Below are positions 1,233 to 61,004 of a DNA stretch of 64,000 nucleotides, one piece after another. The stretch comes from Amoebophrya sp. A120 (lineage: Eukaryota; Protista; Dinoflagellata), in contig CAJINV010000021.1 of NCBI GenBank assembly GCA_905178155.1, positions 912,449 through 976,448 on the forward strand, given 5' to 3'. A model generated the notes under the pieces. The model worked only from the letters and a program-made list of their open reading frames with translations, did no database searches and was not told where the DNA came from. Each line of letters opens with the position of its first letter. The first letter of the stretch is position 1. Position numbers and translations under genes: made by a program.

Positions 1233-4200
1233 CTACAGAAACCCCGGCTGCACGGTTGGTTCCTGATTGAACAATATTCTCATGCACTTGCACCACTGTG
1301 GGGACAGTCCTTTCCTCTTCATACTGGCCTCGTCCATGAACTTGGTGATGCACTTTGTGTAGTGCCCGTACACCGTGATCTCCGCCAAGTGTCGCACGTC
1401 CACGCGCCCGGAGTCTAGCAGAATCACCGCACTATACTGGAACTTGCCGTTGACCGCCTGTTCGGGTTTGGGATTTTTTGAACTTTGATCATGTTCGAGC
1501 CCCTCCATGGAAGAGTAGACCAAGTGCTCCTGCGCGAATTCCACGATCACGTTCACGGTTGCAGAGTCCAGCACCTTCTGTCGGTTGTTGTTATCCCTTG
1601 TTTCGCTCGGGCGGATCAGGGCCGAGCTGGACTGGACCACACGACAGGGGGATTCGTGGAAGGGGAGGTCGCAGTATGACAGTGCACAATTCCCGCCCCC
1701 ACCTCATGTGTCATGCAAAATCCCAAATCCAGTCCTCACTGCCTCGTGGCACTGTTTGCATGACTGAATAAATTTCGAAAGGAGCCCAAACAGTACTACA
1801 GCAAGTGCATAGATTTGTCATGCACAGGCTCCAGGGTCGCTGGCGCCTGTATTGCTGTTCATGCAATACAAATGAGGGGAAGGGGGAGTTGTGCACTGTC
1901 ATACGCATATTTCGTCGACGTTCTCCACGTCGTCCTCCGGTTTCAGGGTGCGCAGCAAGGTATCCACTCAAGAAGTACTATCGCACTCGTAGTAATTATC
2001 GCAGTCATGCATTATAAATCCCCTTCTTGAGGTGCATCCGCATCACAAATCCTGTTTCTCAATCTCATGCTGAAGAAGTTTGTCATGCGGTTGCCACTAA
2101 CTAGTACGGTAATAAACTTTTGCATTTCATACACGGACCGCGGCATGTCCCCGATCTGGACCTGCCGGCGTTTGTAGGCGTGGTACCCGCCTCGATACTG
2201 CGTAATCTTGTCCGCGATCGCGGTGCAGAACTCGCGCTGCAGCTTCGCGGGCCACTCGAAGTGCAGAATGCTCTCGAAGCTCCACTCGGTCGGGACCTGG
2301 TTGTCCGCGGTGAGGTACTGGTATCTTTGTTCTACTTTAGGAGTTATAGTAGTTTCTACTGCTCCTGTGGCGCTTGCCGCTGCGCCGGGCGACTTTTTGC
2401 CTGACGTTATGACGGAATACAAAACGTCGTAAATATGGTGGGGCGACAGAGGTTTCTCCGCCGCGTAGGTGGCCAAGTTTTGCTCTAAAACAGCGCCCAG
2501 ATGTTGAGGAACGACTTCGACGCCATTTGGTGCTGTTGAACCAGCTGCAGGAGGGGTCGTGCTGGGAGCACTAGCACCAATTTTCTGGTCCTTCCCGAGC
2601 TTGACCACCAGGGGTGGATTGCGGTGGTGAAAGGCCTGGAGTTCCAAAAACGGCGACACCGGGGGGATGCGGCCGTGGTCGGAGCACAGGATCAGGGACA
2701 AGTTTGGGTGGCGCAGGAAGAGCTCGCGGAAAAAATCGCGAAAAAACGTATCCATGTTGTTCACCACGGGGGCGCCGGGGCGGTACTTCGGGTGCAGCAT
2801 GGTGTGTCCCTCGTCGAAATAGGCCACGGCAAAGGCCTTTTCGTCCTTGAAGACGTCGTAGAAATCCAGGAGGTCTTCAAGTAACAGCTTGGAAACTTGA
2901 TGCTCCGACTCCAGCTCTATCGAAGGGTCTTGGATCGTGGAAGACGGCCCGGTGCGCCGTCCTTGTTTTCCAACGCCTTTTGTATTTTTGCCAAAAGAAG
3001 ACGAAGTAGATCCAGCTGTAGTTCCTTTTCCGTCGTCGTCCGGTGGATCTACAACTCCACCTGTAGTCGCTCCAGCTATTATTGTTCCGGGCCGCACGGT
3101 GCTGTCGGTTTCAGCGATTTCTTTTTCTTTCAGAAGGGTTTTCAGGCCCAGCGACTCCTGCACGTTTTCTTGGCCGCCGCCAAAGTAGTAGCTCGCGCCC
3201 GTTTCCATCGGCGCGACATGGATCAGGCGCTCGCCCGTCACGCGATCAAAACAAACGCTGTACCCGTTTTCGGTGCGACATTCCAAACCTTCCGGAACCA
3301 CGCCGGCGTCCAGCTGCTTGGCGAGCTGCTCGCCCTCCTTCTCCTGGTCGCTCCACGCGTTCACGATGGTGTTGGCCGGTTTGGATGTTGCGGGGAGATG
3401 TTGAACTTGAATCCCGGAGGAGGTTATTACACTTGCACTGCTTGACTCTGCTTCGAAGATTTCCGACGGAGCAAGTGTCGCTGCAGTACCATCGTTCCCG
3501 TGGTCAACATCTTCCCCTCGGCCTTTGTTTTCCACAATAGCTGCTGAGCTACTTGTGCCAGTTCTGATCTCTGCTCCATCAGTCCTCCTTATTCGCAACT
3601 CCGTACTGCTGCTGAGGAATTGCCGACCCTCTGGCGCACCTTGGACCTTCTCCCCGGGCTTCAGCCCCAGCTTGTCCGCGTCCGGACGCTGCCCGTGGCC
3701 CCAGCGCTTGAAACTGCGCAACCGCACCGCCGTGCCGTTTTGCAGCGTCGCGTTGAAGGCCGGAGACAACACTTGCGTGGCCCGCCCCGTGCTGCACCAC
3801 CCTTTCACCGGCGACCACGTGCGCGCGGCGTACTGGCTCTGCAGCTCGGCGAAATGCATCCAGTAGCTGAGGCAGTAGCACTTCTGGAACCGCGTGTGCA
3901 GGCTGCAGTCGCAGCCGGCGAAGGTGCGAAAGCCCTCCTGCTGCGCGACGCTCAGGATGTGCTTCTCCTTGTCCGTCCACACGTCGCGGTCGCGCCATAT
4001 AGAGTTCTCAACCGTCACACTCTCAACTGTTACATGAGTTTGTGATGCACGAACAGCAAAGGTTAAATCGGGTAGCTTGCAGCTCTCGCATCACAAATAT
4101 GGCGCAGATTATCAGCCTGTTTAGCACTTGGGGGATTTGTCATGCGAAGTAGCTTGATCGTGTGGCAGCTGGTAGCAATTTTGCATGGCAAATCGTGTAA

Positions 4201-5958
4201 CAGTTGAGAGTGTAACGCTTGAGAATCCCATACGCCAAAACTTCTGCCCGGTAATTATTCCGAGTAAAAACATCCCCACCCCAGAGTTGTCATGCAAATT
4301 TGCATGCCAAAAAAGTTTCTCATGCGAAGCCCCATGAGAAGCTTTTTCTAGTCGCGTTTTGGGATTTGTGATGCTAGAAATAGCATGATATGCTAGATCT
4401 GTGATGCTGCTGAACTAGCTAAACAGGACTACACTACGAGGACAAACTTGTCATGCGAGACCACCAAAGTTGGCCGATTTGTCTAGCAGATTTTCCACGT
4501 TGACTCTGGTATGGGGACGTTTTTACTCAGGATAGTAATATTCACGCCGGGGCGGGCGGGGAAGGGTTCGCCGTGCGCCATGGGATACTGATTCAGCGGA
4601 GAATTCGGCTATGCAAGAATACAAATTTTTTGCCGTACACACAAAATGCATCGTACACATTTCAACATCCCCCAATGAATGAGGGAGAGCATGTTGGCAT
4701 TTGGTGTACGCTACTACAAAAACCTCGAAGGTAGTGCATTTGTAAGTACAATAAGAATAAATTGAAACTGTGTACAACTATTACGGCATAATGAATTTCC
4801 TGTCCATATCGGCCCGACGACGTTGAAGTTGTCGAAAATTGTAGCATTCAAGTACTGCGACAGGTACAGCATCGTCTTCGGCAGGCTGCGAAGCACTTCA
4901 CGAAAGCTGAGCATATCGAGAATGATGAGAAGGACCTTTTTCTTTGTGTCTTCACCGTCCTCTGCGGTCTCTGCTGCGGTCGTTTTACTAGCGGATGTCG
5001 AGGGGTTCTCAATTTCTCCTCTTTCCTGTTTAGTATCTTCCAGTGCACCTTCACCTCCGGAAGCGGAGGGCAGTCGCAGTGCGTGTGGTTCATCAAGATC
5101 TGCAGGAAGAACTTCCGAGGAGGTACTACTTCTAGAACTTGTGGCGCTAGCAGTACTGACCCCTTCTTTACGTTTACTTTTTTCTCCGCCAAGAGAAGCT
5201 GCATCCCGAAGAACAAAATCAGCCGCGCCTCCTGAGGCCCGTTTCCCCCGTGCGTTGACCAATTTGCTCGGATGCGGCATGCCCCCCTTCTCCGCGACGC
5301 AGTTTTTCACGGCGTCGGGGATGTTTTTCTCCTCGGTAAACAGGCTCTCCATCGCGCACCCGTCCCGACGATTGGCGATCTCCTTGTGGTTCAGCGCCTC
5401 CACCAGTTCGTCCATCCTCCGGAACTCTTTCACCGCTTTCAATTTCTGTCGGTGGGCCCGGTCGTCGCGGCAGAAGCCCCAGGGGTGGTCGAAAAAGAAC
5501 GGGTCCGCGACGTCCTCATTGGTCCAGCTCTCGTGCTCCTCGAAAAACAACGTGACTTCATCAAGTGACCCCGATGCGGTGGTTATTGTGGTGTTTTTCT
5601 GCATGAGGGCTTCGTCCTCGGCCCGCTCTCGCTGTGTAACTTCTGGTCGTGCAGTTTCTGTTTCTGGTAACGCAGATTCTGTCTTCCTATCCTCCTCGTT
5701 GTAAATTTCGCCCTTTGCAGATGCCTCGTCCTGTATTTCTGGCAGCATTATTCTATGCCCAACTGGAATGTCCATGCGCAGACTTGTGGCTGCCATGAGG
5801 CGGTTCCGTCTCTTCAATTCCTCCAATCCCTGCCTCCGAAGCGCGCCTCCGCTTACCGAGCGAAAGCTGCTCGATAGTTGTACACAGGTGAGGCAAGCAA
5901 CAACAAAATAGAGACCACGGAGAGCGGCCAACATTGAGAACGGACGCAGACGCAACAT
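1233..5958 (-). CDS. DUF229 / alkaline-phosphatase-superfamily protein with signal peptide; 6 exons
   Basis: Removing 5 introner elements joins the ORFs in frame: VLLIILDMLSFREVLRSLPKT...FNVVGP|NSPLNQYPM...GVNI|TGQKFW|RDRDVW...LILCSDHG...HHRNPPLVV; motifs resemble DUF229; hydrophobic N-terminus. Confidence 0.7.
1675..1903. mobile_element. Introner element, family A (TIR tatga(c/g)agtgcacaa(c/t)tccc)
   Basis: TAT...ATA ends; direct repeat cgcag/cgcat; removal gives DEIC|DLPF in frame. Confidence 0.9.
1961..2131. mobile_element. Introner element, family B (TIR tat..tgcaaaagtatcg), degenerate
   Basis: Direct repeat caagg/cacgg; removal keeps frame PRS|(V/L)LRTLKP. Confidence 0.8.
3998..4232. 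mobile_element. Introner element, family C (TIR tatgg.gttctcaa.cgttacactctcaactgttac)
   Basis: About 35-bp TIR; perfect direct repeat cgcca; 235 bp. Confidence 0.92.
4256..4534. mobile_element. Introner element, family D (TIR tatcctgagtaaaaacgtcccc)
   Basis: Perfect direct repeat gtaat; frame restored GVNI|TGQK. Confidence 0.92.
4610..4808. mobile_element. Introner element, family E, degenerate TIR
   Basis: TAT...ATA ends; perfect direct repeat tcggc; restores VVGP|NSPL. Confidence 0.82.
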
Positions 5959-9989: not shown

Positions 9990-12900
9990 TCACCGCCCAG
10001 CTCGAACCCTGGCCTCCGCGATCCTGGTCAGCCTTTCATTGCCGGAAAACAGGGAGTCCGATCCCAAGGATGGTTCGCAGTCCACGGGCTCTCCGAAGAC
10101 TTTCCTCGGCAAAGAGATTGCTCGCAAGTACTGCCAGCCAAATCGGACGTTGAAAGCCAGCCACAAACTGCACAGAAACGTGAAGGGCAGATTATGGCAC
10201 TGGATCTGCTCCAGTTGCTCAGACCAGTAGTAGCCAATCACATTTTCCAAGCAGATCAAAACCACCGTGAACAAACAGCACTCGGCGTCCCAACTAAAAA
10301 CGTCCCCACCTACCCAGAGCAAAGATGGGGATTTTCTTGCAACACAAACTTAGAAGTTTTGGGCGTCAAGCATGACACGTAGCAGTCCGTAGTGTAGTAG
10401 TGCAGGTATTAGCAAGGACAGCCGCATTACCATCTGCTTATCCTGTATACAGCATTGCAAATCCCACCACACGGTCGTTGGAAATAAGTACTTATCATGG
10501 AGATGCGCATCACAAACGTTCCTGTCATTGCAAATCAGTATGTTGACAACTCTGGGCGGAGGTGAGGACGCTTTTGCAGAGGATAATCGGCATAGAAGTC
10601 CAGTTTGGTCGCGTAGGCAAGGCGCGGCAACTTGTCCCCGATGACCAGTTTGAACGCGAGCTATCCACAGGAAATTTCCCGCACACGAGCACAACGTACA
10701 AATGCTGTCTCTGCATCACAGAACATGCCTCCAATCTCAGTCAGAACGACAGGTTGCGTTGGATACTTCATCAAGTTCTTAGTTTGTTATGCATAATTTT
10801 GTACCTGTTGTACGGAAAATTTGATGTATTTCATACCACTACGGTTAAAAGCATGGTAAAAACAATGGACAGCCGGCCCGGTAAATCTTGAACGGGTAGA
10901 ATGAAGCTCGTGAAGGCACAACAGGTCAAGCCGAGCAGCGGAAACAGCACCGACCGCGTGAAGTGCTGGTGCTTGCGCGATATGATCAAGGTCGATTCAA
11001 ACTTCTGTATGCAGTGCAAAAGTTCTTCTTGTATCGCACTCGTAGTAAAAATTGCAATTTAATGCATCACAAACCTCGACTCTTAGGCGGGTTAGGTAAA
11101 TCTATCAGCATATACAATTTTCAGTTCTATATTTCTTTTCAGGAATTTCTACCACATACGATTTATTACTTTTGCGATGCATACTCTGCTTTTCGAACCG
11201 GTTTCCAAACACTTGCGCCCCCGGCGGATGCAGGTTCCACTCGTCAATCAAGCTCTCCCCCATCATTTTCTGGTTGATCCGATATCCACAGGAAAAGACC
11301 TATCGATCTCCATCCATTTTTTGCATGACAAAGAGCACAGGCAGGTTTGAGGCATGCTTTATTGCGAGACAAATTCGATGCTGGTGGGGAACAACAATCA
11401 AGGGGTTTGGTCTTTTTTGTGGATCATATCCGGTTCCGCTTTCCGACGAAATACTTTCCGTAGTCCGGGTTCGCGGCCACACCGGCTATCCTATGTAAAA
11501 CCATCGCACTCGTAGTAGTTGCAGTCATGCATTACAAATTTTTTACTCAAGGTAGATCCACATTACACATTTGGTTTCTCATGCTGAGGGAACAAAAATT
11601 TGTCATGCATTTATACGAGTACGATACTTTTGCAATGCATACCGGCCCCCCACATGCGAATCTGTATCGTTAGGCTTTGGACGTCGCAGGGAAACTCGCG
11701 GAGCTGAAACGATTCGGTAAAGGTGCCGGTAAAAAAACCGGACTTCCGCAGTGTGCCGGGAGGATTTTTCACAGCGCCGTCGCGCCGGTACATTACCTAG
11801 GGGAGTGTGACTACATATGAATTTTGGACTGTCCTTCCCATATGGCATAATCCATTAACAATACCCAGCCACCCAATGTCGTCGTGGTACTCTCAAGCAT
11901 TAAATGAATGTGAATCCAACTGAGACGACGAATAAACAGTAACAAGCCGTACTAGAGGTGTGGAGAACTGTGCTGTCAGTACCTTCTCCGCCGGCCGACC
12001 GCCCTCCGCCTTCTCCCTGTCGCCGTCGTGGTCCAATTGCAACATGGGCCCAAACGCCGTCTCTGTCAGTTCGACGCAGTTCGCGAAAAACAGAACCGGC
12101 CGCGTGTTGGCGAACACGAACTCATCGGATCTATCAATGTAGGGTCCGTGTGCGAATGCAGGGTCAAACCAGTCCACGGTCAAGTATGGAACTCTCAAGC
12201 GTTACATTCTCAACTGTTACATGATTTGTCATGCAATTTTACCACCAAGACCGCCGTGCTTACGCTCCTTCGCATGGCAAATCTACGAAGGGCTGGACAG
12301 CATCTAAATCTGTGCCAAATCTGTAATGCAAAAGGCGCAATCTTCCCCCTTTCACTTTTGCCGTTTTTGCATGACAAATCTAGGTAACAGTTGAGAATGT
12401 AACATTTGAGAACGCCATATCAAGTTGATGCGCGCCTTGAACGTGTTTTCCAGCGGGTTCACCGCCAGCAGCGCGACCCACTCCAGGTGGAGGGTGACCG
12501 CATTCGGAAATTTTGGGAAGTGCCCGTGATTGGCGAAGAAACGAAATTGTGGCAGGTCCGTGGAGTCGAAGGGGTACTTGATATACGGGCTTTCGTTTGA
12601 TTCCTTTTCTACTTCCTCTTGTTCACGAGGTGCAAGTTTGTGTTTGACAAAAACGCCATTATCGACTACATTGCTTCCGCTTCGAATTAGCGCATCTTTC
12701 TCTGACTCTGTTGTATCTGGCCGCGCGATCCACGAGACTGCGATGTTGCAGTTGCCTGAACAAGCGGCAGTGGTTGCCTCTGATTCTACGGGAGAAGCTT
12801 TCTTCGCGTCGGGTTGGCTAGTCGATAATGTTGTTTCTTGTGCGACGACAGCGATGCTGTCGAACACACCACAACCCTGTCGAGGGTCATCGTGGCCCTT

Positions 12901-13833: not shown

Positions 13834-13921
13834 AATGTCTCAGATCTTTTCTGGTAAAACCCTAATTTCGGTCGCGCGAAGATGGAGCACGATCGAAACT
13901 AGAAGCCAAACCACCACACTG
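13834..13921. repeat. 88-bp direct repeat, copy 1 (duplicate of the 3' end of the neighbouring gene)
   Basis: aatgtctcagatc...ccacactg identical to 14770-14857. Confidence 0.92.
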
Positions 13922-14769: not shown

Positions 14770-14857
14770 AATGTCTCAGATCTTTTCTGGTAAAACCCTA
14801 ATTTCGGTCGCGCGAAGATGGAGCACGATCGAAACTAGAAGCCAAACCACCACACTG
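14770..14857. repeat. 88-bp direct repeat, copy 2
   Basis: Identical to 13834-13921; contains the last codons and stop of the 14776 gene. Confidence 0.92.
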
Positions 14858-17800: not shown

Positions 17801-19797
17801 GAAATATCAACCGGCACTGCTGGCGTTCTTGCCGTCGTTTGTTCCTCCCCAAATAAATGACTATCTGCTTGATGTTGTGCGACGTAATTGAAGTCTTCTG
17901 TGCTGGTCCTCGCGCTGGTCAACATTTTGACATTTCTATTCGTAACATCCGCTTGTTGCACGTGCGACGGCTGCACATCATGTTGGACCTCCTCTTCTAA
18001 GAAAAATTCCCGTGAGCAGAGGTTGGACTGTGTCTGTGTCTGTGCTCGCCGTTGATGTTCCTCTTATGAGAGTGCACAACTCCCCCTCCCCCTCATTTGC
18101 ATGGCATAAGCAGCAACGCAAGTGCTGGCATAAATGCAGCTTTTGCATGACAAATTCGCTACCGATTCTAGTGCTGTTTCGGCTTCCGAAATCTGTCATG
18201 CAAGATGTGCCAAAATAAAGAAAAGAGTAGATTTGGTATTTCGCATGACAAATGAGGGGGAGGGGGAGTTGTGCATTGCCATACCTCCCCTGCTCGTCCC
18301 ACCACGACGACATCGTCGACACACTGGCAGAGACACAGGTTATCAAATGTAAAAATGTCTGGGCCTGGAACACTGCAACTTGTCATGCTAAATCTGAACG
18401 ATGCAAAAATCTGTGTTGCGTGAGTACTCAAAGCTGTCAGCTTTTGACCAAGTTGAGATGGAGTTTCTCATGCAGAAAAGGCATGATAGAGGCCTGAAAG
18501 AATCTGTCACGCTAGGTCTCGCATTCCAGACCTCATGGGTCATGGAAAACTTGCATGACAAGTCTTGCAACGTTCCAGACCCAGACGCTTTTGCATTTGA
18601 TAGAGGTAATTCTGCAACAGAAAAGGGTCCGTTTTGTAGATCGTCCGGATGACCAGGTAGTTGCACGCAAACCACGCATACCAGGCCACGGCGAGCCCCG
18701 GGTGGACGATGAAACTCAACGCCGACGAACTCGCCGGCGCCGGGTCGCTGGTACTATAATAACTGCTCGCGGGCGGTCCGCAGGTGTCCTGGAAATGCTT
18801 CTTGGCAGAGGCGTACTGGAGAAATTCGGGGGCCCACAGTGTAATGGCCAACATCGTCAGCCAGGATGCAAGAAAATGCGCGGTCCAGAGAAGGGCCACG
18901 AAGACGGCGCTCCAGTTGATCCTTTTATTTCGATGTTGTTGTGGTACGGCCATATCCACAGTTTGGTTGTTGATGTACCCATTATTTTTTCTATGATCCA
19001 CCTCATTGCGCCCCCTGCTGGTGGTGACTCCTTGATGTTGATGTTCTTCGCGACCACACGTCGACTTATCCACCTTTAAGATTCGGGCAGAAGTCGACGT
19101 CGTGTGGGAAACGCAGCGCAGAATTTGCACCAGCGCGAGCACGCCGATGAGGGAGATTTGCGGAAAAATCGGCAACGCCGGCCAGGTCTTTGAGGTAGTC
19201 CCGTCCTTTATCCTGAGTAAAAACGTCCCCCCCCCGAGTTGTCATGTAAATCTGCATGGTAAAAATGCTTCTCATGCGGAGCCCCATGAGAGGCATTTTC
19301 TATTCGTGCTTCGCAATTTGTCATGCTCCAATCGGCATGCTGTGCTGCCTCTGTGATGCTGCTGAACTTGCTAAACAGGATCACACTGCGAGGCCAAATT
19401 TGTCATGCAGAACTCCCAAAACTTGGGAACTTGTGTTGCAGACTTCCCATCTTGACTATGGTGTGGGCATGCTTTTACAGATGATATCCTTTTCGAACAG
19501 GTTCGCGCACTCGTACAGACGACCCTGCCACCGGTGCTCGAAGAGGAAAACAACGAGGCAGGTCGCCGCGAAAACCGTGCCAAAAAAGTGACTCAGCGTC
19601 ACACGCATGTTGATGCTGGAAGTTTTTCGTATGCTACAACGATGTCCTGCTGGAGGAAAAATTCTTCGAAAAAGAATCTGCTTTGGTAAAACTATATATT
19701 CTTGATCTTCTAATATGTCCAGTGCCTTGGTCGGCAACTTGGAAAGCAAAGGGAAGCTGCTGCAGCTAGTACCTACATGATCATTTTTGGACCTCAT
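14776..19797 (-). CDS. Large multi-pass membrane protein of unknown function; 4 exons; start codon uncertain (19797 or 19608)
   Basis: Three element removals join the ORFs in frame (LFEKD|GTTSK, LQNYL|CLCQC, RAGE|EHQRR); several hydrophobic helices separated by low-complexity loops. Confidence 0.65.
18065..18283. mobile_element. Introner element, family A
   Basis: Long TIR; direct repeat cctct/cctcc. Confidence 0.9.
18341..18602. mobile_element. Introner element, family G (TIR tatcaaatgtaaaaatgtctgggtctggaa)
   Basis: About 30-bp TIR; direct repeat caggt/gaggt. Confidence 0.9.
19209..19486. mobile_element. Introner element, family D
   Basis: Perfect direct repeat tcctt; body similar to 4256-4534. 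Confidence 0.9.
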
Positions 19798-44679: not shown

Positions 44680-46322
44680 TCAACGGCCATAATGAATCAG
44701 GCCCACTTCCTTGTGGAATTGGTTGACCAACTCTTCTACTGTCCGCCCGTACACCTGACCGTCGCCAACTTTTGCGTTTCCGGTTTTCCACAGATTAAAG
44801 TAGTCGTGTTGGACGCGTTCGAACTTTGGGAAGAAGTTTTCTTCGGCCGCCTCTACCTCGTCGAGCAATTTCTTCAGAAAGTCCAAGCTCTTTTCATGGT
44901 TCGTGGGGCCGCCCCTGTATGAAATGCAAAAATATCTTGGTCTGGAAGAACAATGCGCGATGTGTCACGCAGCTTTTCCATGACCCATGAGGTCTCGTCT
45001 GGAATGCAGGACCTAGCATGACAGATTCTGTGCGATCTCTCTCATCATGCCTATCCTGCATGAGAAACTCCCTCCCGACTTGGTCAAAACTGGACAACTT
45101 TTGGTAATCACGCAACACAGATTTTTGCATGCTTCAGATTTAGCATGACAAGTTGCATTGTTCCAGACCCAGACATTTTTACATGTGATACCGTGACCAT
45201 ATTGGAAATTTTGGATGGAATCATGGACTTGGCGACGGAGAGGATGCTCTCCGCCTCCTCGTGCTCCGCCAACCGCTCAAGTTGATGGAGGCCGCGCTTG
45301 ATGCTGCTAAGAGCCGCCTTAAAGCGGAGGGCGTCGTGTGGTGTGGCCACCTTCCCCTCATCCGTCTTCCAGTATTTTTTCTTGACATCAAAGAGCACCT
45401 CGCGCGATTTCGTCAACACGTCGTGTAACTCGGAGTGCACACGTTCCATCGTGGCGGGGGCGTGACAAGCTGAATGGAACCTGCCACGCTTTGCCCATTC
45501 CTTGTGCCCCGAAACCACTTCCAGCAAGGAGGCCTGTTCCGTCTTCTTGCCGGCAAAATCCTCCGGCGCCCCGGCGTCGATTTGACCGGTTGCGGAGACC
45601 TGCAGAGTTGCTGCCTCGTCGCTCGCCGCAGAAGCAGCAACAAAAGCTGTTATGCCGAGCCCCAGCCCTTTTTCGACTAACAGCGGACACTCCTTCTCGG
45701 TCAACTTCTCGCTTCCGTCCTGGTCCAGCGCGACAAAATCCGTAAAAAAGACCGCGCTGGTAGGCTGCCGCGACGTTCTCCGTCCGTTCTTCATACGTAC
45801 TACCACTCGCCGGATCCGTCAACACGGTCATCATCAGCTTCACCTGAGAAGTAAACGCGTACAAAAAATCCGAATGAAAATGAATGACCACACTGCAGCA
45901 ACACCAACACATCGATCCTGTTTATGGAGGTTATCAAAAAAAAATGCCTCACGTCGAGGAAGCAGCAGAGCAGTTAAAGCAAAGCGCTTCAGCAAGAGCA
46001 TCAATTACAATTTCATCACCTGCGGCTCCGGGTACCCAGCAGCGAGCAAAGCCTCCTTTTGCTGCGTCGCGTCGTGGTCCTTCTCGTTCATGAGGAGGTC
46101 GAGCAGGGCGGCCGTGTTAGCGGCGTCCGGGTGCGAAACCGTAGGCGGAGAATGCAGATTCGTGGTCGTCGTCGGGGGGGGGGGAATCTCCGCTGTCTCA
46201 GATTTTCCTCGCAAATTTCCCGAAACCGGAAGCACTTGGAAAAACGTGGCGAGAGGCCAGGAGAGGAGGCACGGGAAAACCGCCGTCTTCACGACGGAAG
46301 CCAGGAGGTGACGGCTTGCCAT
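44680..46322 (-). CDS. Hypothetical protein with hydrophobic N-terminus and an EF-hand-like loop; apparent frameshift near 45745
   Basis: MASRHLLASVV...PEPQ, GT-AG intron, VKLMMTV...; DQDGSEKLTEKE lies in an adjacent frame; element removal gives MVT|GGPTNHEKSLDF. Confidence 0.5.
44918..45190. mobile_element. Introner element, family G
   Basis: Direct repeat ccctg/ccgtg; body is a reverse-complement relative of 18341-18602. Confidence 0.9.
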
Positions 46323-47652
46323 TTTCAACAGGTGTAGTAGATTGATGAGACTGTGACTCACACTCACCGAGACCTACGGAATTGTACTTAATAGAATGTA
46401 TACGCTAGTCGTGTCTTGCTTTATGTTCATGGACTTTGGTCTAACTCTAGGGCCGGATCATCTGAGCCTGCGCCTGCTGCGGTGGCATTGCTTCTTTCTT
46501 TCCCTTGCAGTCAGATCGCGTCGCGCGGCTTCTGCATGTCAGCGACTTGATTCAGCACCAAGCGGGTGAACTCTTCCTCTCAATATTTTTCGCTCTCAGC
46601 ATGTGTAGGAGAGGATGCACTTTTGTAGGGACAGAAGGTCTTCAAACGCAATCAAAAAGATTTATCTTTATGAATCGAGAACAATAAGCCCAAACGTCGT
46701 CGGCGCACGCGCAATGCGATTTTGCGCATCTCCATTGAAGCAGCGACTTGTTTTTTTCATTTTTTGGGCATTGTAAATCGGGCGGGGTAGAAGTAGTACT
46801 TACATCTGGGTTATTACAAACGAAGTTGGAGAATCTCATCAAACAGTCTAATGAGAGCTTTCCCTGAACGAAGGCTCTTCCACCAGGACGAGAGAAAGTG
46901 AGCAGCACCTACGAGTACGAATTCTTTTTCATCGGAAAAGTCCAAAAGTCCTGTCGCATGACCCTTTTATCCGCTCCTCCACGAAGGAGCTTCCTCGCGT
47001 GTCGTGTCGCAGTAGCAAACTTACATTTTCACCCAAAGGGTCCGGGCGTCGGAGGATTTTTTGCTTTTGACTGTCAGTAAACACTTAACATCAACGTAGA
47101 AGTGAATGTAAAATCTGATAAAATTGAGAGGTGAGACTGTGATGACGACAACATTTAAAGTAAGTAAGTAAGTACGCAAAAACAAAAAGTGATAAGTATA
47201 GAGGTACATAAAAAGGCATTTACTCGGAGGAGTGAACCTAGTTTCTTAAAAATTTGCTGATAAACCTGCTTCGAGAGCCCATTTGTTCATGGTTCCGCAT
47301 TACTCCGCCGACATATTACAGTAGAAGTCGCTAAAAAAAACTTCAGCCCCTCTCAGCACACCGGACATTGGCTTGAAGTCCGTTTATTTTTCCGTCGTTT
47401 GGTCATCTTCTCGAAGCAGTACCTCTTGCGCGTTCTCCTAGCTTTGTTACCTGATTAGCGAATATTAGTCACAATGAAGATACAACGTATGAAAAAAACG
47501 CACAACGACAAAACACTGCCTAGCTTTATCTGTAGCAAGAACTTCTACGCATTATTCGATTTGACGAAAGTCACAGGTTGTACAGCATGAATTAGAGAAT
47601 TAATTCATTCTAAACAACTATATATTTATCTACCTTGTTCGAACTGTCAGGT

Positions 47653-48100
47653 CTACAGCTCTTCTCCGCCGCCGGACGACATCATCATCGTCTTGAATTT
47701 GGTCATGATGTACTATCCACTCCAAAAGTATCGCACGATTTAGCTGTGACGCATGACAAATCCTGTATCTTTACGTAAATCAGCATTACACATTACACTT
47801 TTCTTCTTTGCATTAAGATTTGTCATGCAATTTCCACTAGTAGTACGATACTTTTGCAATGCATATGTGCAGGAACACGACGATGACCATGTAGCTCAGA
47901 GCCATCACCAGCACCGTGACCGGCCCCACCTTCAACCCGGTGCCGTCCCCCTCGCTCGAGAACCGCAGCAAGTTGTTGGTCGGCTGTCCCGCAACGGTAT
48001 CCTTGCTCTTGCTCGCCTCCTGGCGCCCCGGGCGGCGACCGGCCGTTCGCAAACCGGCTCCGACGGCCAACCGTCCTCCAGCAGCAGGGGTGTCAGACAT
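47653..48100 (-). CDS. SEC61B: Protein transport protein Sec61 subunit beta; 2 exons
   Basis: LLRFSSEGDGTGLKVGPVTVLVMALSYMVIVVFLH|IMTKF matches the Sec61-beta signature GLKV.P..VLV.SL.F...V..LHI. Confidence 0.88.
47714..47865. mobile_element. Introner element, family B
   Basis: Direct repeat tgtac/tgtgc. Confidence 0.85.
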
Positions 48101-50335: not shown

Positions 50336-53300
50336 TCACTTCGCTATCCCTTGCGGTTTCGAGGACCCACCAGCAGGAGCGTACCGTCCGTTTGGCATTC
50401 GCCGCCTCGTATTTGCAGTCTTTCTGTTTTGATGTCCCCGTTGTACAGTAACCCGAGTCGTGCTCCTGGCACTCTTCTGCGCCCCTTGCTTCTGTCCGCA
50501 GCGCCCCTGTAAGGCATTTTTTATCTCTACTCGGCCTGCTGAGGCCCGACCCGCGACACTGCCGGATCCACTGCCGCTCCCACTGGACCCCGGCGTGATA
50601 TCTTCGGAAGAAGAGTCCATATCTTCAAAAGGCATGTTCTTTGATGCAGAAGTTCCTGCGCCCCAATTGTTGATCATGATCTGCCGTTGGTGGTGGGAAT
50701 CGATCTTCGAATCTGGCAGGAGAAGGGACTGCTTTGGCTCTTGCGGGTCCCCCTGGAATGATTTCTCTCGGAGGTGCTCGTCTACGACCGCCATCTTCTG
50801 CATTGTAGTTCCCTGCATGATCTGCTGCTGATAGGTGGTTGGATTGAACCTCTCGCCAAAGTTGTTTGCTGGCTGCTGCTGTCGGCAGCTGTCAATGACG
50901 GAGGACTGGTGCAGCTGGTGCTGTTGCATATTTTTGCCGTGATTTTTTATTTTGCAACTTGCGACGCTACTTATTGGAGCGTAAGTGTAGACCGTACTGC
51001 CGTCTGCCAACTGCATTGGCATCAGTGCAGGCATGGGGTTTTGTTGATAGTGGTGCTGGTTATAATTTTGGCCGGGGGAAGCGTGGTTGTTGTCGTGTGT
51101 TGTCGTGCCGTTGTACTTCTCCTGATCTACTTGGCGACACAAGACGGAAGAGGACGCCGCTCCGCCACCGAAAAAAGTGCCATTTCCTGGCAACAGCTGC
51201 ACTGGTTGCTGGTGCAGCAGTAGTTCTGCTTGGCGATCCTGAGTTAGTTCTTGCCCCAGAAGCTCAAGCTGCTGCACTGCCACTGGTTGATGACCTTCTC
51301 CTCGTTTCCCACCCTCACTTCCTGGAAACAACATTGCTCCCCGCTCATGATCTGCGGTTCCGCGCCCGCCTCCCCCGGCGATATTCACGAGGACACCGCC
51401 TCCCGTGGCCTTGGTCGTGTTGTCCTTCTCCTTATTCTTGCGCTTAATGTTTAATTGTCCAGCGTCAACAGAAGCAAAATTCGGTGTATTTTTTTCAATC
51501 TTCGCTTTTTTGCTTTTCCGCTCTCGTCCAGCACTTCCAGAATGGTGTATCAAATATTCCTGATCTCGCGACCGCATGTAGTGCAACTGTGATAGGCCAC
51601 CGCCACGACGAGCATGAACATGATCTAGGTGCTCGCCCACTTGCAGCAGCTGCTGCTGTTCCGATTGTCTTTTCCGCGCCCACTCCTCATTTTTCCTGCT
51701 CTCGCTGCTCATAAAGTCGAGACACAGACTATCCACACTAAATTTATTCCCGTACTACCACACGCACAAAATGCATCGATAATTATTTGTTCTCCAACTT
51801 AGAGCATGTAGTTGCCACTTGTCATGCTAACTACTTAGGATCGAAGGCAAGCTTTGTCATGCAGAGACCGCGTTTGTCGGTCGTCGTCGTGGACAGGAAA
51901 TTTACTGTGGACCATACGGATCCTCCGTCGCCAGCTGGAAGGGCAACTCCGGGCCGCGGTACACGTCTGTGTTACGGATGCCCGCGGCCCGCGGAAACGG
52001 CCGGGACGGGTCCTTCCACCAATAGTCGGGAACAGGACTTATTTTTTTCCGTTTATTCGCAACATGTACATGAGGAGGTGCACCACCTTCTAGGTTGACT
52101 TCGTCTGTTTCCTGGTAGTTGTAGTTCACTAACATCTTCTTCTCATCATCTCTACTCTCGACGGCCGCTGCGCGCTCCTTGCGCTCGTGATAGCTAGACT
52201 CCAGCAGATTTAGAAAGGAGCTAAATTTGCTCAAAAATTTCGAACCCAGAGACGAAGATGAAGTGGTTGCACTTGTTGCCTGATCCCCCTCCGCAAGTAG
52301 AACATCAGCTTCGCCGCGGTGGGACGGCGGAGGCCCGTTCTTGGCCGCAGGTCCCGCAGTTCTCCCCAGTGTGGTGGTAACGGTATTTTCAGCTGGTTCA
52401 ACAGTAGACCCCGGCTGCAGCTCCCGCACCGGTGACAGAGATAATTGGGCCTGACGCTCTTGCTGCGGTCGTCGTGTGCCGTCATTTTGATGATGCGTCT
52501 CGGTTTGGTCTTTTCGCGCGGCGGTAGTTGTAATTTGCTCTGATGTTCTTGTTGAACATGTCCACCCTTTCGCGACCTCCTCGCGGAGTTCGAGTTGGTT
52601 GATGTGAAGGGAGAATGCGCTGCAAGAGTAATTATACTGCTCATTCTCATTGTAATCACGCATGACAGAAGAAATCGTGTTTCTATAGCCAAATCAGCAT
52701 TACAACTCCGAACTCCATGTCCATTTGTTTTTGTCCACCTTCTGAAAATAAACTGGTAACGCGATGTATTTATTACACTAGTGCGAAGATATAGTACTTT
52801 TGCAATCTGCATAGTAAGAAGTACTCCGTTTTCCGGAGCAGTTGCATGACCTGCAGGTCTTTGTCTGGCGGGGGAAGCCGATGGTCGGCCATCTTCTTGA
52901 AACTAGCCTTCCACTCTTCGATGGCGCGCTGCAGCCAGGGAAACGGGGCATGGATCACCTCAAACACAAAGAACTCCTGCTCGTCAGGTTGTAATTGCAC
53001 ATCTACTTCCTGCACCTGCTCGACGAGATGACCATCTTTGCCAGAAGTTTCTGCTGTCTCAGCTTCGCGCGGTGATGTGCTGGGCTTCGATCTTGGATAG
53101 ACAGATGCTTCTCTACTCTTCCCTGTGGTTGTAGTTGAGGTCGTGGCCACTTTAACATTTTTTTCTGGCAGCTGCGGATCGTGCTGCGCCAAACAACCCG
53201 AATCACAACCACGTTTCGTCTTAGGCACAACGATGTTCCTCCTTTTCGTTTTCCTCAACCCCACCGCTTCCCCGGTGATGTAGTCCCGGCCGGTCTTGAC

Positions 53301-53645: not shown

Positions 53646-54215
53646 GCTGTTTCTCGGTGGAAGAGTAGCAAAGGAGACCACAGCACGAAAACAATTTTAT
53701 AATTCCGAGGAAGGGCAGGCAAGCGCAAGACCAAGGACAAATTCTCTTGTTCGTAGTTCTCAAATAGGTGCGGCTTTTAGGATTTTTGTCCCGGAAGCGA
53801 AACTAAAAGTACAAGTAGAACAAGCAGCACATGAAGAGGAACTTAGCAGTATACTATCACGTGAACCATGACAGAACGGAGGATACTGTACGCATACGAG
53901 AACAAATACATAAACATCTACATCCACATCTCAGAAGTAAGTATTCACATCAGAGCACTTCATCCACCGAATTGGGCGACGAGAAATTGTTTGAAGATGA
54001 GACAGGTGCAAATCGACCGGCAGCACCAGATGAACTTGAACATCAAAAACTTATAAACACATACACAACATCAAAGCGCTGCCTCCCGCTCCCAAAGTAG
54101 CGCTGCTTCCCGGGGGCGTGGTCTCTTTCAGTACTGCTATTCGTGCTTTTGTTTCGTGCATCTGTCTGCGTTTCGGTCTCACTTGAACTTCTATCTAAAA
54201 CGTTCGCCTTATCTA

Positions 54216-56923
54216 TCAGTCTTCGTGCTTGTACACGTGGGTTTGCGTTCCTTGGCTGTCGTAAAAGTGTATTTCGCGCAGATTCGGAATCGTGCCCCAG
54301 CAGGTCCAGTCGACTGCGCACCAAATGCGGCTCACCTCCACACGCGGATTGTACAGAGAAAACGCCCGACTGCTGCTGTGCGACGCCGCGCTGCTCGGGA
54401 ACCAGATTTATCCTGTGCAAAAGTTGTACCGTACTCGTATTGCAGCACTTTTCTGAAGCTAAATCCGCATTTACAAATTTTATTTCTCATGCTGAGGAAA
54501 TTTGTAATGCATGACTGCATTTATACGAGTACGATACTTTTGCAATGCATAATATTCGCGCGCAGTCGATTCCCTCGGTTCCCACTAACTGCACCACTTT
54601 TCCACTCTCAAAAACCGATGCACTGCTGGCGCAGGAAGAGCTAACGGCAAGATTCGTCGTTGCTCCCACGCTGTTGGAGATCCCACTTGCTGCTGCTGTA
54701 GTCGAGGTCGTTGTCGAGGCTGCTGTGGTCACTGCGGTGGACGAAGTTACGCTTGCGGTTCCTGAAAATTGCGCGGCAGTTAATAGTTCTGCTGGTGCTT
54801 TCGTTGTGTCGTTCATGTTCATGTTCATCTTCGTGCTCCCGCTACTATTTTTGTTTTTCTCAAGCAGCTTTTTAGGCTGTTCCTTCGCAAGCTCTGCTGC
54901 GTCTTCCTTCGCGACTTCAGCTTCGTCGTATGAGAGTGCACAACTCCCCCTCCCCCTCATTTGTCATGCAAAATACCTAATTTACGCCTTGGCTCTCGGC
55001 ACTGTTTGCATGACAAGTTCTGGCAGCCCAAATAGCACTACAATCCTGTCCAAATTTGTCATGCGAAATCTGTATTCTTGCTGGCGCTTGTATTGCTGTT
55101 CATGCAATACAAATGAGGGGGAGGGGGAGTTGTGCACTTCTATACGTCGCGCAACGTGAACCCCTTTTTCACCTTGAGCGTCTCGGTCACTTTTCCGAGC
55201 AGCTTGCTAAGGTTATCCTCGAGGAGAATCTATGAACTGCAAAAGTATCGCACTCGTATAAATGCATGACAAATTCCCTCAGCATGAGAAATAAAATTAG
55301 TAATGCGGATTTACCTTGAGAAAAAAATGCGTAATGCATGACTGCAATACGAGTACGATACTTTTGCACAGGATAGAACCTGAGGGGAAAATTCGTCCAC
55401 GTTCTCCTTCTTCGAAACCTCGCGCCACTCATATCCAAGAAAAAAACTAAGCGAGTGTAAATTTGTGATGCTGAATTATGTAGAACAGTTATCACTTGTC
55501 ATGCTGGACTTGCGTCATAAGCTACTTTGACTTTCATGATCCGCGTTTCCACTAATACTGGCTGCGCATGACAGGTTCCTTTGTTCCCGGTAAAAATGCA
55601 AAACGAATTTGTGATGCTGCTCTCCATAGAAAGTTACACTTACGCAGTTTTTTTCCTGGATGACTCAGCCTCGATCACCACTGACGAATCGTCTTGCATT
55701 GACTCGTCGGCTTCTACACATTTACCAGAGGTGGCACCAATTGTCGTCCTATCTTTATTTTTCATCGACAGCTGAGCAGTGGAACTAGAAGTACAACCTT
55801 CTTGTCTCTGCGCAAACTTCCGTCGCAATAGCAAGGCCCGTGGGTACTTCTGAATGAATATTACCAGCGTCGCGGAGCGTGAAACGCCCAGATTGCTAAC
55901 GCCACTCCCGGTGGACAGATTCCTTCCGAGCTTTAATGTTTGTTCCGCGGCGCTTGTTGTATATGTATCCCCGGCGGAGGAAACGGATTTTGTCTTTTCT
56001 ATCCTGTAGTTCTCTCCTCGTGGTCCACGACCATCCTGGACGTTTAATCGATCTGACGGACCTACTGCTGCACTTCCCCCTGCTTGCGACGGGCGGGTAG
56101 AAAAAGTGGTCGTTACGTGTGCGTCAAAGCTGCCGCTCTGTTGGTGCAGAAAAAACTGCTCGGAGGTCAAATCCGCCGGTGTCGGTAAGTACTCCTTCGC
56201 CATATAAAAGTGCACAACTCCCCCCCCCATTTGGATGCCATGAACAGCAATACAAACACCACCACACGTGGAGCCTCTGCATGACAAATGTGTGTGCTTA
56301 GTGTAGTACTCTTTGGGCTTCATCCGGAATTTGTCATGCAAACAGTGCCACAAGAAAGCAACAAATAACTGGATTTGGGTTTTTGCATGACAAATGAGGG
56401 AGAGGCGGAGTTGTGCACTGTCATACGCCAGCTCATTGATGTAGTTCCCGGCCGTTTTTACGTAGTCTGTCCAGGAGATAGTAGTTGCAATTTGGTTCAT
56501 TTCTCCGCCCTGCGCACCAGAATTATCGCCTTCGGTCGACGGCGACGTCCTATCTGCCTCGTTGATGACCTCTGCGAAGTCCTCGATTGCGAGCCAGTCA
56601 TCTTCCTCGTCGTAGTCAGTTTCATTGTCGTCTATAATTTTCTCAGCTGGTTGGGCAGAATTAACATCTTCTGCCAGCGCTCCACCGCCAAGCACGACAC
56701 TGCTAAGTTTCTGCAAGGGGCCCCTACTACACGCCGACAGTTCCTTCCTGTTGTGGTCCTTTGACTTTGATGTTCTCGCAGCTGCATTCGATTGTGCAGT
56801 CGGTGAGTACACGCGGATCGGCTGGATCAAACACCATCCAGGTTCGCCCTGCTCCGGTGGTGCAGTGTCGCCCTTCGAGGGGTCTTTCTCCTGACTACCG
56901 CTGCCGGTGTTCACGTTTCCCAT
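54216..56923 (-). CDS. Hypothetical protein with MG N-terminus (possible myristoylation); 6 exons
   Basis: Five element removals link the ORF segments, ending CAR|IWFPSSAASH...HVYKHED stop. Confidence 0.6.
54409..54551. mobile_element. Introner element, family B
   Basis: Direct repeat agatt/atatt. Confidence 0.9.
54929..55144. mobile_element. Introner element, family A
   Basis: Perfect direct repeat cgtcg. Confidence 0.92.
55231..55375. mobile_element. Introner element, family B
   Basis: Direct repeat gaatc/gaacc. Confidence 0.9.
55432..55662. mobile_element. Introner element, family H-like
   Basis: tatccaagaaaaaaact...agtttttttcctggatg; perfect direct repeat actca. Confidence 0.82.
56203..56425. 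mobile_element. Introner element, family A
   Basis: Perfect direct repeat cgcca. Confidence 0.92.
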
Positions 56924-58123: not shown

Positions 58124-58962
58124 TCATTTTCCACCCCCCGTCGGTCTGTTCTCCGGCGGTTTGCTGCCGACCGGAAACCCTGCTGGATCCAACCGCACCG
58201 CCACGCCCTTCGCTCCCCCAACCCAGCTGAGCATTGTGGAGTCGCAGAGCATGCCCTCCGACGCCGACCCGCCCACCGAGGCCTTCTGCACTGAAGTTCC
58301 GCCGTCCTCGACAGATTTCTATGGATTGCAAAAATGTCTGGGTCTGGAAATTTGTAATGCTGCGTTGGGAATAATGAATGCTCTGTAATGCACAGCCAAG
58401 CATGAAAAATATGATCTGCGCTTCTTTGTGTTGCGTTTTTCGCATGACAAACTGCGTTTTTGCATGACAGGCCACAGGGTGAGGGTCTCTTCTTGGACAC
58501 GCATCACAAACTTTTTGGTCATGCCAGACAAGCATGACAAACATGCATTCTTCCAGACCCAGACATTTTTACAATCCATAATTTCCCCGCCGGCACGATT
58601 GCGCCGACCTGCGCGACCACCACATGCTCACCGACTTTGACCTTCACATCGTTGGTGACGATGGTCAATAGGGTCTTCTTGTCTTCTTCGTCGTCGTTTT
58701 CTTCTTCTCTTATCCTAACCTGCAACTTGTTCAACTTCTTTCCGGATGGCTCGGCGGATTCAACTTTTCCAACGACAAAATTGGCAAATTTCTTCACCCA
58801 GGGGAATTCCTCGTAGGGGAGACTCTCGCCGCAGGAGAGGCACATCGCGGGGCCATGCTCGTCTTCCGGGTCCTCCGGCTCAAACTCCGTGCTGCCGCAA
58901 TCCGGCTGCGGGCACGCCAGGCGGCCCCCGTAGGGCGTTTCTTCCGAGGCGTCGAAGGTCAT
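58124..58962 (-). CDS. tRNA-binding OB-fold protein (EMAP/Trbp111/PheRS-B2-like) with N-terminal Cys4 zinc ribbon; 2 exons
   Basis: CPQPDC..CLSC, FVVGKVESAE..KLNKLQV..TIVTN..VKVGEHVVVAQVGA..GK|SVE..KASVGGSASEGMLCD. Confidence 0.78.
58320..58580. mobile_element. Introner element, family G
   Basis: About 30-bp TIR; perfect direct repeat atttc. Confidence 0.92.
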
Positions 58963-59536: not shown

Positions 59537-61004
59537 TCATCCAACAACCAATTCTTTCACTTCATCGATCCCATATCGCAAGGAAAAATCCCCCCTCCCC
59601 ATATCGAAAACGAAATTTGTGATGCTTTATTTGAGGTCACAAATCGATTTGTCATGCTAGAAGGCCAAGAGCCGCAGCCGTTGCCTCGTTTGCAGACAAT
59701 TTGTCATGCTGTTTCCCACTCTCAGATGCCTCCTCTCATGCTGAAGATGCAAGGCTTCGCCACGCCACCCAGCACTACAGTCCGCATCTTTTCCCGTGTA
59801 GCATGACAAAGCTGATTTGTGACAACAAATCTGCATTACAGATTTCCGTTTTGATATGGGGAGGGGGGATTTTTCCTTTTGATATCCCACCGCCATTCTT
59901 CACATTTGAATACCTGGTTTCATTTGTTCAACAATTTTTTCAGCGATCGTGTCTGTGCCATCGCAGTACTACAGCATGACAGATCTGGCTTCTTAGCTTC
60001 ACGTATAGCAATACAAATTTATCATTCGTTTTTCCTTCTGGAAGAACTTGTCATGCTATTTCTACTAGTGCGATACTTTTGTAATGCCTATCCCTATTAA
60101 CGATAAGTAGCGACTACCCGAGTTCCCTCAAGGCGTCCGCGGCCCTCTGCGCCCGTCTATGCGAAGAAAAAAGTGTTACAGTCACACACTGTGTTGCGAA
60201 ACAAGCAAGACAGGCAACCTTTGTCATGCAGGACATGCTTGGCAGCCTCATTTAATTCGTGTTTTCCCTTATAGTCTGCGCATCACAGGTTTGCTTTGGC
60301 ATGTCGAGCAACTTTGTGATGCAGAAACTCCAACAAATGTGTAACTGTATCACTTTTTTCCTGGGATACCGTCCACCCACCGCACAGTAGACCAGAATCG
60401 GCTTTGCCTTGTCGTCCGCAGGCAGCAATTGACTAGCGGCGTTGAAGGCCGCGATCGGATCGTCTGTCATCCGAATAGAGATGTTGACCGAATTGGGCAC
60501 CTGCTTTTCCGCAAACTCCTCCGGCGTGCGGACGTCCACCAGCAGCGCATTTGGATCCTTCGCAGTTTTCTCCCACTCCGGCTCCGTCACCTTGCTCGCC
60601 TGGAAATCCGGCCCACGCGTAGTGCTGCTCATCGTGCGCTTTTGGTGGGATAATGATAAAGGAGTGCGAGTTGATGAAAATCTTGTGCGGTCTTCTTCGT
60701 GCCCGCGGCTTTCTCGGGTTCTTGCGGTACCGTGTTGCCGACGAGAACTTTTACTCGCTGACGGATGAACAAGATCTGCAGGATGTTGTTGTCCTGCCAA
60801 AGCGCCTTTTGATGTAGTTGAACCTCCGACCAGAAGTTCCGATGCCCTTATGCCACGAAGAATTGGTGAGGGTAGTAGATGTAGAAGTCCAGCGAAATTG
60901 TAAATATCGCTATTCAACAACGTCAAGGTGGAGGAAGGAAACAAAGTAAGTTTTTGATTTCGGCTCGTCGGAAGAGATGCCCTGCGACAGATACTGCGAA
61001 GCAT
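59537..61004 (-). CDS. Single-domain rhodanese (sulfurtransferase), probable mitochondrial presequence; 4 exons
   Basis: LLVDVRTPEEF..VPNSVNI..ILVYCAVGGR|AQRAADALRELG|YSNVKNGGG|IDE; R/S-rich leader ending KRTMSS. Confidence 0.85.
59574..59884. mobile_element. Introner element, family J (about 50-bp TIR tatc..aaggaaaaatcccccctccccatatc)
   Basis: Perfect direct repeat tccca. Confidence 0.92.
60158..60368. mobile_element. Introner element, family H-like
   Basis: Perfect direct repeat ccgtc; inserted in the active-site loop CAVGGR. Confidence 0.88.

Follow-up and report, generated by a model that had tools for sequence, protein, structure and literature searches.

What removes inverted-repeat elements from the transcripts of Amoebophrya sp. 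A120, and where exactly is the cut made? The question is raised by a 64,000-nucleotide stretch of this dinoflagellate genome (contig CAJINV010000021.1, positions 912,449 to 976,448; hereafter the window), in which 14 minus-strand genes are interrupted by 49 terminal inverted-repeat (TIR) elements, most of them beginning with TAT, ending with ATA and flanked by a 5-bp direct repeat. The elements are virtually certain to be the introners already known from this strain, and the class is therefore published. Their mode of removal has been open since 2021, their borders being marked as unknown in print. What we add is a single register, in which each intron would comprise one nucleotide, the element and four nucleotides, independently of the repeat, the orientation and GT-AG. 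The basis is 14 junctions from one sample, together with three protein checks.

Removal from transcripts and the register of the cut

Four RNA-like runs (X3 to X6), which are contigs from one sample and whose kind was guessed, were compared with the window. They skipped ordinary GT-AG introns and had zero depth in the intergenic bin 19867-20147, and therefore behave as RNA. All 11 elements within 17900-26300 were skipped, as were three more among the joints listed in 36000-56000 (44918, 47714 and 51730; elements are named by their first position). At each of the 14 elements with a listed junction, the loss amounted to the element length plus 5 nt. The DNA-like run X1 gave an ungapped contig over 46249-54489 with the elements kept, and the 47707/47865 joint of element 47714 was absent from it. 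A remnant without intact ends at about 52640-52750 was retained in an RNA-like contig. We conclude with high confidence that the elements are removed at the RNA level. The sequence-only reading of this DNA had called them precise non-canonical introns and had named retention in transcripts as one observation that would overturn it; the 14 skipped elements bear this reading out.

To place the cut, we let k count those bases of the left (plus-strand) repeat that are kept; mismatched repeats set bounds on k. As a common register, k=1 fitted 14/14 junctions, k=0 and k=2 fitted 11 each and k=5 fitted 7. When cuts were simulated as independent and uniform, any common register arose in 1.8% of simulations (0.018). 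A lower bound of k>=1 came from elements 18341, 21873 and 23462, and an upper bound of k<=1 from 22276, 51730 and 23462. Element 23462 has no repeat left; its joint allows no slide and places the cut at k=1 in each of four runs, a result that shows the repeat to be dispensable for removal. Proteins gave three further checks. Met337 of IFT57 (Met in 93 of 96 aligned homologues) requires k<=1 at element 35204, and in the orthologous protein P0099 a Lys at 11008 and a Glu at 10286 match k>=1, k=0 giving Arg and Asp; this Glu is the last residue of P0099, hence a weak check.

Taken together, the mismatched repeats make it likely that the intron is 1 nt + TAT...ATA + 4 nt in one fixed register. The removed bases are likely to be one nucleotide of the upstream copy and four of the downstream copy. 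The earlier proposal that the element leaves with one whole repeat copy thus stands for length, but not for position. As 1 and 4 add up to the length of the duplication (5 bp), the target would be restored exactly after every insertion, whatever its sequence. Among the RNA-confirmed copies in minus-strand genes, families A and B are each represented in both orientations; removal needs neither GT nor AG and works in both orientations. The earlier suggestion of one removal machinery gains support from this one register across several families. The target bases were near background at all five positions in 255 oriented elements from loci of a second assembly (JACKZZ01), where the strand called for an element was that of the remainder of its locus in 177 of 211 cases.

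One register would turn tens of thousands of junctions described as variable into one code. It predicts the ends of the excised RNA exactly, so that the question of spliceosome or not becomes directly testable. The invasion of genes would also be explained: because the placing of the cut undoes the 5-bp duplication, an insertion can do without splice dinucleotides, and a fixed 1+4 cut would let an element enter a gene at any point harmlessly. Gene models, too, can be repaired with the rule. The deposited A120 protein P0098 changes frame at element 11487 (window 10150-13305), and the 1+4 rule applied there yields a channel-like protein that matches P0099 to the end of P0099. The alignment to P0099 is ungapped at four element junctions, P0099 ending at the fifth; P0098 itself was of no use for two junctions, the model departing from the frame there. 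A Pfam scan of P0099 returned no match.

Two further observations concern transcripts. Of the 190 reads that the raw-read RNA run X9 yielded, nearly all fell on one element and continued into unlike sequence; the run was otherwise unmapped. About 180 of its reads lay over the element end 45103-45190, with fixed differences and one unlike flank, and we attribute this pile-up to a transcript, from another strain or locus, that retains a related element. Separately, one X6 RNA-like contig covered a U-box-like frame (52773-53696) and a downstream frame of 721 residues (region 50090-53804), lacking only element 51730; overlapping untranslated regions or read-through would account for it.

Spliceosome, nuclease and other explanations

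The explanation that accounts best for these data, and which we hold to be fairly probable as a whole, is that of transposon-derived introners cut in the 1+4 register by a modified spliceosome. In a first step, an integrase-like DDE transposase acting in trans would bind the ends and the inner TTTGTNATGC motifs of the element, and insertion with a 5-nt stagger would duplicate 5 bp of any sequence. The two ends of the element, whichever way it is oriented, are predicted to pair in the pre-mRNA, UAU and AUA forming the base of the stem. The intron would then be N-UAU(G/C)...(G/C)AUA-NNNN, a form that combines the loss of element plus 5 nt at 14 junctions with the register suggested by mismatched repeats, and the original coding sequence would be restored without GU, AG or repeat. 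Finally, by analogy with ordinary introns, the 5' site may be read from +2 on, its UA matching the GUA of those introns, by a reportedly U1-less spliceosome, with the 3' site set by the distance from AUA.

That a modified, U1-less spliceosome is the removing machine is, on its own, somewhat better than an even bet. Seven of the eight ordinary introns found begin with GTA, equal to the element at +2/+3. Where elements have GT-AG ends on the transcript strand, GT-AG falls at k=1 (18065, 36811). In A120, 83 of 89 spliceosomal proteins are present and U1 was not detectable (PMC7789003). In 23462 and 51730 (the stem of 51730 being offset by 3 nt) no pairing is predicted for the outermost UAU and AUA, but the cuts still lie where the motifs would put them; this speaks for reading of UAU/AUA themselves rather than for a ruler based on the stem only. 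G at intron +1 seemed enriched in the window (19/45) but stood at 28% in the 255 locus elements, and was dropped as a signal.

Several points weigh against this explanation. As regards the machine, the first and last bases of the intron are near background in the 255 elements, with no G.G or A.C preference, and the GT (GC)...AG ends of U2-type introns are largely absent, GT-AG at k=1 being read in 3/49 elements. UAU is predicted to be paired in most copies, element 55432 starts with CAT and so is without U at +2 (frame evidence only), and no branch-point motif was identified in the elements. As regards the register, k is pinned exactly by one element only (23462), five of the 14 junctions have perfect repeats and are uninformative, and the junctions of 18341 and 51730 each come from one run. 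The GC-to-AT mutational asymmetry between repeat copies gave no usable signal in 277 oriented JACKZZ01 elements. The junction-bearing runs are the contigs of guessed kind from one sample introduced above, and contigs drop minor forms. As regards the origin, neither the window nor the loci (623 kb, overlapping) yielded a transposase, and 120 of 139 long locus open reading frames (ORFs) compared with Pfam gave no transposase or integrase; Farhat et al. likewise found no transposase in A120 (PMC7789003).

The strongest competitor keeps the same elements and the same 1+4 register, but assigns removal to a dedicated non-spliceosomal endonuclease and ligase that read the paired ends, as in Euglena. 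We regard this account as unlikely in full, and a nuclease-ligase as the removal machine is a tentative candidate. Unconstrained first and last intron bases and symmetric signals removed in both orientations would suit it, as would the predicted folds, in which at least 10 of the first 16 nt pair with the 3' end in 45/49 elements (a count made with no shuffled control). Euglena non-conventional introns resemble those of the window in their paired terminal motif, fixed unequal distances, lack of GT-AG and suspected origin from miniature inverted-repeat transposable elements (MITEs), and their authors suggest non-spliceosomal factors (Nomura et al. 2025, PMC12501133). The details differ: N3-CDG / CH'G-N5-6 with a purine at the exon start in Euglena, N1-TAT / ATA-N4 with no exon base rule seen in A120. 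Euglena is also an unrelated lineage in which the rule was genetically tested, whereas that of A120 is derived from junctions and proteins only. Against a nuclease-ligase stand the match of element +2/+3 to the TA of ordinary GTA starts, the cutting at the motifs of copies with poor terminal pairing, and the nearly full spliceosome of A120 (PMC7789003). It is doubtful that A120 has a second, non-spliceosomal mRNA splicing system, in which a paired UAU/AUA end would be cut at a fixed 1-nt/4-nt stagger matching the 5-bp stagger of the transposase. If it had, exonic insertions would be erased in either orientation by a convergent counterpart of the Euglena system, and the intron would be portable and sequence-independent.

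It is improbable that removal is exact in length only, with a cut position in the repeat that differs between introns and a shared k=1 that is coincidental. The legend of Figure 3 in Farhat et al. has splice sites variable relative to the hairpin (PMC7789003), calls of co-opted or carried sites differ between families in the table of Gozashti et al. (PMC12130899), and perfect repeats hide the register. A sliding cut is contradicted, however, by the fit of k=1 to 14/14 junctions (0.018 under independent cuts), by the agreement of the three protein checks and by the cut of the repeat-less 23462 at k=1. Sliding by the aligner would itself give the published variability; two of the joints seen here are GT..AG on the non-coding strand only.

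Excision from DNA, similar to that of ciliate internal eliminated sequences and confined to a nucleus or stage outside the assembly, is very unlikely. A domesticated transposase would go well with the transposon ends and the exact restoration, but the DNA-like X1 keeps the elements without the 47714 joint (among the joints listed), and the asymmetry of the register follows the transcript, not the element. Least credible of all is template switching by reverse transcriptase, an artefact for which a hairpin with short direct repeats is the known substrate (PMC8240250, PMC2923612), given that 23462, with neither repeat nor slide, is joined in 4/4 runs, that the product keeps the upstream copy at positions 1-4 where retention of the downstream copy would be expected from a switch, that the depth of 3.0-3.5 in bin 22396-22676 is the yield of its 41-nt exon alone, and that conserved proteins require removal.

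The elements, their relatives and their likely origin

Elements were called with a strict scan for TAT...ATA pairs with at least 10/16 inverted-repeat matches and a flanking repeat of at least 4/5. It gave 41 raw pairs in the window as compared with 1 to 9 in each of ten Markov controls. Three pairs were dropped as inner or chance pairs (52384-52750, 54481-55293 and 59602-59884), and 11 weaker elements from looser scans and inspection by eye brought the final set to 49, of 136 to 501 bp and 10.6 kb in total. Candidates at 28160 (an orphan end), about 59950-60090 (a decayed copy) and 57378-57560 were left outside this set. An intact TAT start and ATA end was found in 45/49 elements. The flanking 5-mers were identical in 28 elements and matched at 4/5 in 17, at 3/5 in two, at 2/5 in one and at 0/5 in one, so that 45/49 have at most one mismatch. 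Our counts are close to those first reported from the sequence (51 elements, 29 perfect, 17 with one mismatch), and both the prevalence of TAT...ATA and the 14 host genes were recovered. The nine or so families proposed there were not reproduced as such: blastn gave six multi-copy groups (37 elements) and 12 singletons.

When elements were called without using the repeat and lengths to 10 bp were scanned, the repeat was perfect at 5 bp in 22/33 window elements and in none at 3-4 or 6-10 bp. In the JACKZZ01 loci it was perfect at 5 bp in 269/377, at 4 bp in 2/377 and at 6-10 bp in 0. Five bp is thus the sole duplicated length, among the lengths scanned, in window and loci. The elements share the end matrix TAT[GC]NNNTGCAAAA; ends found through the inner motif started with TAT in 185/192 cases and with TGT in 3/192. 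This inner 10-nt motif, TTTGTNATGC, occurred 71 times in 42 elements (34 of the 42 carry it), and its eight occurrences outside those 42 all lay in later-added or decayed copies. A near full-length relative was present in loci L001-L148 for 35/49 elements. In run X1, 58-110 contigs left the window at each of four element ends (36515, 54551, 54928 and 54929) and led into unlike flanks (agreement 0.36-0.40); with a flanking repeat of 5 bp only, this points to the element as the mobile unit.

With their TIRs, constant target-site duplication (TSD), short length, lack of coding capacity and dispersed copies, the elements are likely to be non-autonomous, MITE-like TIR DNA transposons, and TTTGTNATGC is likely to be a transposase-binding repeat. 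Shared ends, the inner motif and the single duplication length make one transposase type plausible; this earlier claim is to that extent upheld, against which stands the failure to find a transposase. A search of window and loci for a long TAT...ATA copy with a transposase ORF, as had been suggested, did not deliver one. The loci contained one true long copy (815 bp, L031 6184-6998, also in L117 and L127), GC-rich inside and sharing its ends with the 3998/12185/36280 group; four interior frames of this copy had no Pfam match. Other long TAT...ATA pairs in the loci spanned many inner ends and were rejected as chance. Two end motifs had 0 matches in viral contigs.

The published description of A120 introners agrees with these elements. 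Farhat et al. (2021, PMC7789003) reported a hairpin, direct repeats of 3-5 nt (the Figure S19 legend has 5 bp) and inverted repeats that open with TAT, continue through seven weaker bases and then show three or more A, and they described RNA-seq-supported non-canonical introns with no clear dinucleotide signature. TAT start, weaker bases, A-run, direct repeat, removal without GT-AG and occurrence in families are all found in the window. The legend of their Figure 3 has the sites variable and the border unknown; unlike this, the window is consistent with one register, a dispensable repeat and removal in both orientations. According to Gozashti et al. (2025, PMC12130899; supplement file 8, 41 of 58 rows), A120 families are mostly TIR DNA transposons, with TSD lengths of 2-6 and mixed recruitment of splice sites, whereas in the window 5 bp and one register apply throughout the groups. 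Both TAT as the start and the 5-bp repeat had thus been published for A120 in these two papers, in line with the sequence-only statement that the class is not new. Family 38 of Gozashti et al. is labelled "5-bp TSD, TA/TA Termini" and Ginger, although the text gives it as without homology to known Gingers, and its ORFs resemble transposase/integrase regions of LTR elements. In view of this family, an integrase-like DDE enzyme is the best lead for the transposase, with about an even chance of being right. The 815-bp copy is close in length to families 38 and 196 (about 810 bp); window families could not be assigned to the family numbers of that table, one A120 row of which has hAT5/hAT6 terminus matches. 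An alternative lead would be hAT5, with its 5-bp TSD.

The elements were filed in no named superfamily, as they differ from IS3EU/GingerRoot and IS481EU in TSD length. IS3EU/GingerRoot has TA..TA termini, which the window elements share, and a TSD usually of 6 bp, which they do not (0/377 and 0/33 perfect at 6 bp). IS481EU has TNT..AYA termini and a TSD of about 4, 15 or 25 bp, as against 5 bp here with 2/377 perfect at 4 bp (to 10 bp scanned); Ginger2 has a TSD of 4 or 5 bp (PMC10045372). Introners of Micromonas, Aureococcus and Symbiodinium are alike in having TIR and TSD, in becoming introns upon insertion and in using part of the duplication as splice site, but they carry or co-opt GT/GC and AG, neither of which the A120 elements need (PMC11282704, PMC9860276). 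No statement of the 1+4 register was found in the literature retrieved on Amoebophrya introners, non-canonical introns and splicing or in the passages available of these two papers; Figures 3 and S19-S25 of Farhat et al., the remaining supplement rows of Gozashti et al. and Roy et al. (2023) may bear on it.

Host genes and further features of the window

The window is eukaryotic, of about 50% GC, and its gene strand is minus. The IFT57 exon queried is 100% identical to the Amoebophrya sp. A120 protein P0001, and a second window exon is 100% identical to an A120 protein over 79% of the query. Pfam confirmed trehalose-phosphatase, WLM, rhodanese, IFT57 and Sec61beta as element hosts. Once the elements were removed, the minus-strand frame was open across 49/49 junctions, and the motifs GDDV/TD, DL/LGFN and GGR/A (slash, junction) were rebuilt, as had been reported from the sequence. 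The WLM-PUB frame then runs for 765 residues across 9 elements and that of trehalose-phosphatase for 788 residues across 6; if kept, the elements would shift the frame or bring stops in all three frames in 45/49 cases. None of the second-assembly loci overlaps a window gene, hence there was no orthologous DNA for empty sites. On the relation of JACKZZ01 to A120, a search with one exon gave five candidates, of which none was named A120.

Table. Elements and control features of the window (positions in the window; k as defined in the text; RNA, RNA-like runs).
Feature	Position	Strand	Repeat	Evidence
TIR element, family A	1675..1903	-	4/5	
TIR element, family B	1961..2131	-	4/5	
TIR element	3998..4232	-	5/5	
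TIR element	4256..4534	-	5/5	
TIR element, one end decayed (CGT on +)	10286..10585	-	4/5	orthologue residue favours k>=1
Old TIR element	10662..10835	-	2/5	+5 removal rebuilds channel-like helix matched by P0099
TIR element	11008..11183	-	4/5	orthologue residue favours k>=1
TIR element	11283..11428	-	4/5	
TIR element, family B	11487..11641	-	5/5	
TIR element	12185..12419	-	5/5	A120 protein P0098 has junction
TIR element, family A	18065..18283	-	4/5	RNA junction k 0-4; GT-AG at k=1
TIR element	18341..18602	-	4/5	RNA junction k 1-5, one run
TIR element	19209..19486	-	5/5	RNA junction
TIR element, family B	21689..21838	-	5/5	RNA junction, 4 runs
TIR element, family B, within HAD GDDV/TD	21873..22022	-	4/5	RNA junction k 1-5, 4 runs
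TIR element, family A	22276..22491	-	4/5	RNA junction k 0-1, 4 runs
TIR element	22539..22708	-	5/5	RNA junction, 4 runs
TIR element, family B, opposite orientation to 21689/21873	22777..22919	-	4/5	RNA junction k 0-3, 4 runs
TIR element, family B, repeat lost	23462..23671	-	0/5	RNA junction 23457/23673, k=1, no slide, 4 runs
TIR element, family A	25267..25499	-	5/5	RNA junction
TIR element, family A, transcript 5' end TAC	25933..26179	-	5/5	RNA junction, 4 runs
TIR element, one end AAT on +	27896..28031	-	4/5	
Old TIR element	31995..32188	-	5/5	
Old TIR element	32274..32442	-	3/5	
Old TIR element	32582..32965	-	4/5	
TIR element, IFT57	35204..35404	-	4/5	Met337 of P0001 needs k<=1
TIR element, IFT57	36280..36515	-	5/5	
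TIR element, IFT57	36576..36746	-	5/5	
TIR element, IFT57	36811..37132	-	5/5	GT-AG at k=1 (37133/36807)
TIR element, family B, WLM-PUB gene	39408..39558	-	5/5	
TIR element, family B	39610..39767	-	5/5	
TIR element at WLM DL/LGFN	40979..41238	-	5/5	
TIR element, family A	41292..41498	-	5/5	
TIR element	41577..41767	-	5/5	
TIR element, longest (501 bp), GC-rich interior	41883..42383	-	5/5	
TIR element, family B	42488..42643	-	5/5	
TIR element	42692..42957	-	5/5	
TIR element, family B	43376..43524	-	5/5	
TIR element	44918..45190	-	4/5	RNA junction k 0-2, 2 runs
TIR element, family B, Sec61beta	47714..47865	-	4/5	RNA junction k -1 to 3; joint absent from X1
Old TIR element, stem offset 3 nt	51730..51916	-	3/5	RNA junction k -1 to 1, one run
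TIR element, family B	54409..54551	-	4/5	
TIR element, family A	54929..55144	-	5/5	
TIR element, family B	55231..55375	-	4/5	
TIR element, transcript 5' end CAT	55432..55662	-	5/5	removal judged from frame only
TIR element, family A	56203..56425	-	5/5	
TIR element	58320..58580	-	5/5	
TIR element, rhodanese gene last exon	59574..59884	-	5/5	
TIR element at rhodanese GGR/A	60158..60368	-	5/5	
Ordinary GT-AG intron (control: X3-X6 as spliced RNA)	21382..21637	-		skipped in runs
Ordinary GT-AG intron (control)	25034..25225	-		skipped in runs
Ordinary GT-AG intron (control)	47451..47633	-		skipped in runs
Decayed family-B-like remnant, no intact ends	52640..52750 (approximate)	.		kept in RNA-like contig

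Element-bearing genes all lie on the minus strand of the window (1-64000), as do nearly all long frames, in agreement with the unidirectional gene clusters reported for Amoebophrya. The decayed family-B copy at about 59950-60090 (one end TAG for TAT, the other eroded) seemingly lies inside a GT-AG intron of the rhodanese gene, and ends seem to decay where splicing is independent of them. After the orphan family-A end at 28160 come some seven GC-rich units (about 107 bp each) as well as blocks of 11-12-bp microrepeats with a repeated 35-bp end; the region 28160-30120 probably represents one long intron that contains nested repeats and of which the second end could not be placed. A 59-bp direct repeat (33244-33302 and 33933-33991, 98% alike) resembles a duplicated first coding exon; between its copies lie AT-rich palindromic arrays of about 630 bp, and this insertion or duplication is of another kind than the TIR elements. 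Among the second-assembly loci, frames of the Erythromycin-esterase family at L036 2022-5251 adjoin, and are partly in frame with, a ubiquitin-conjugating and a RINGv domain.

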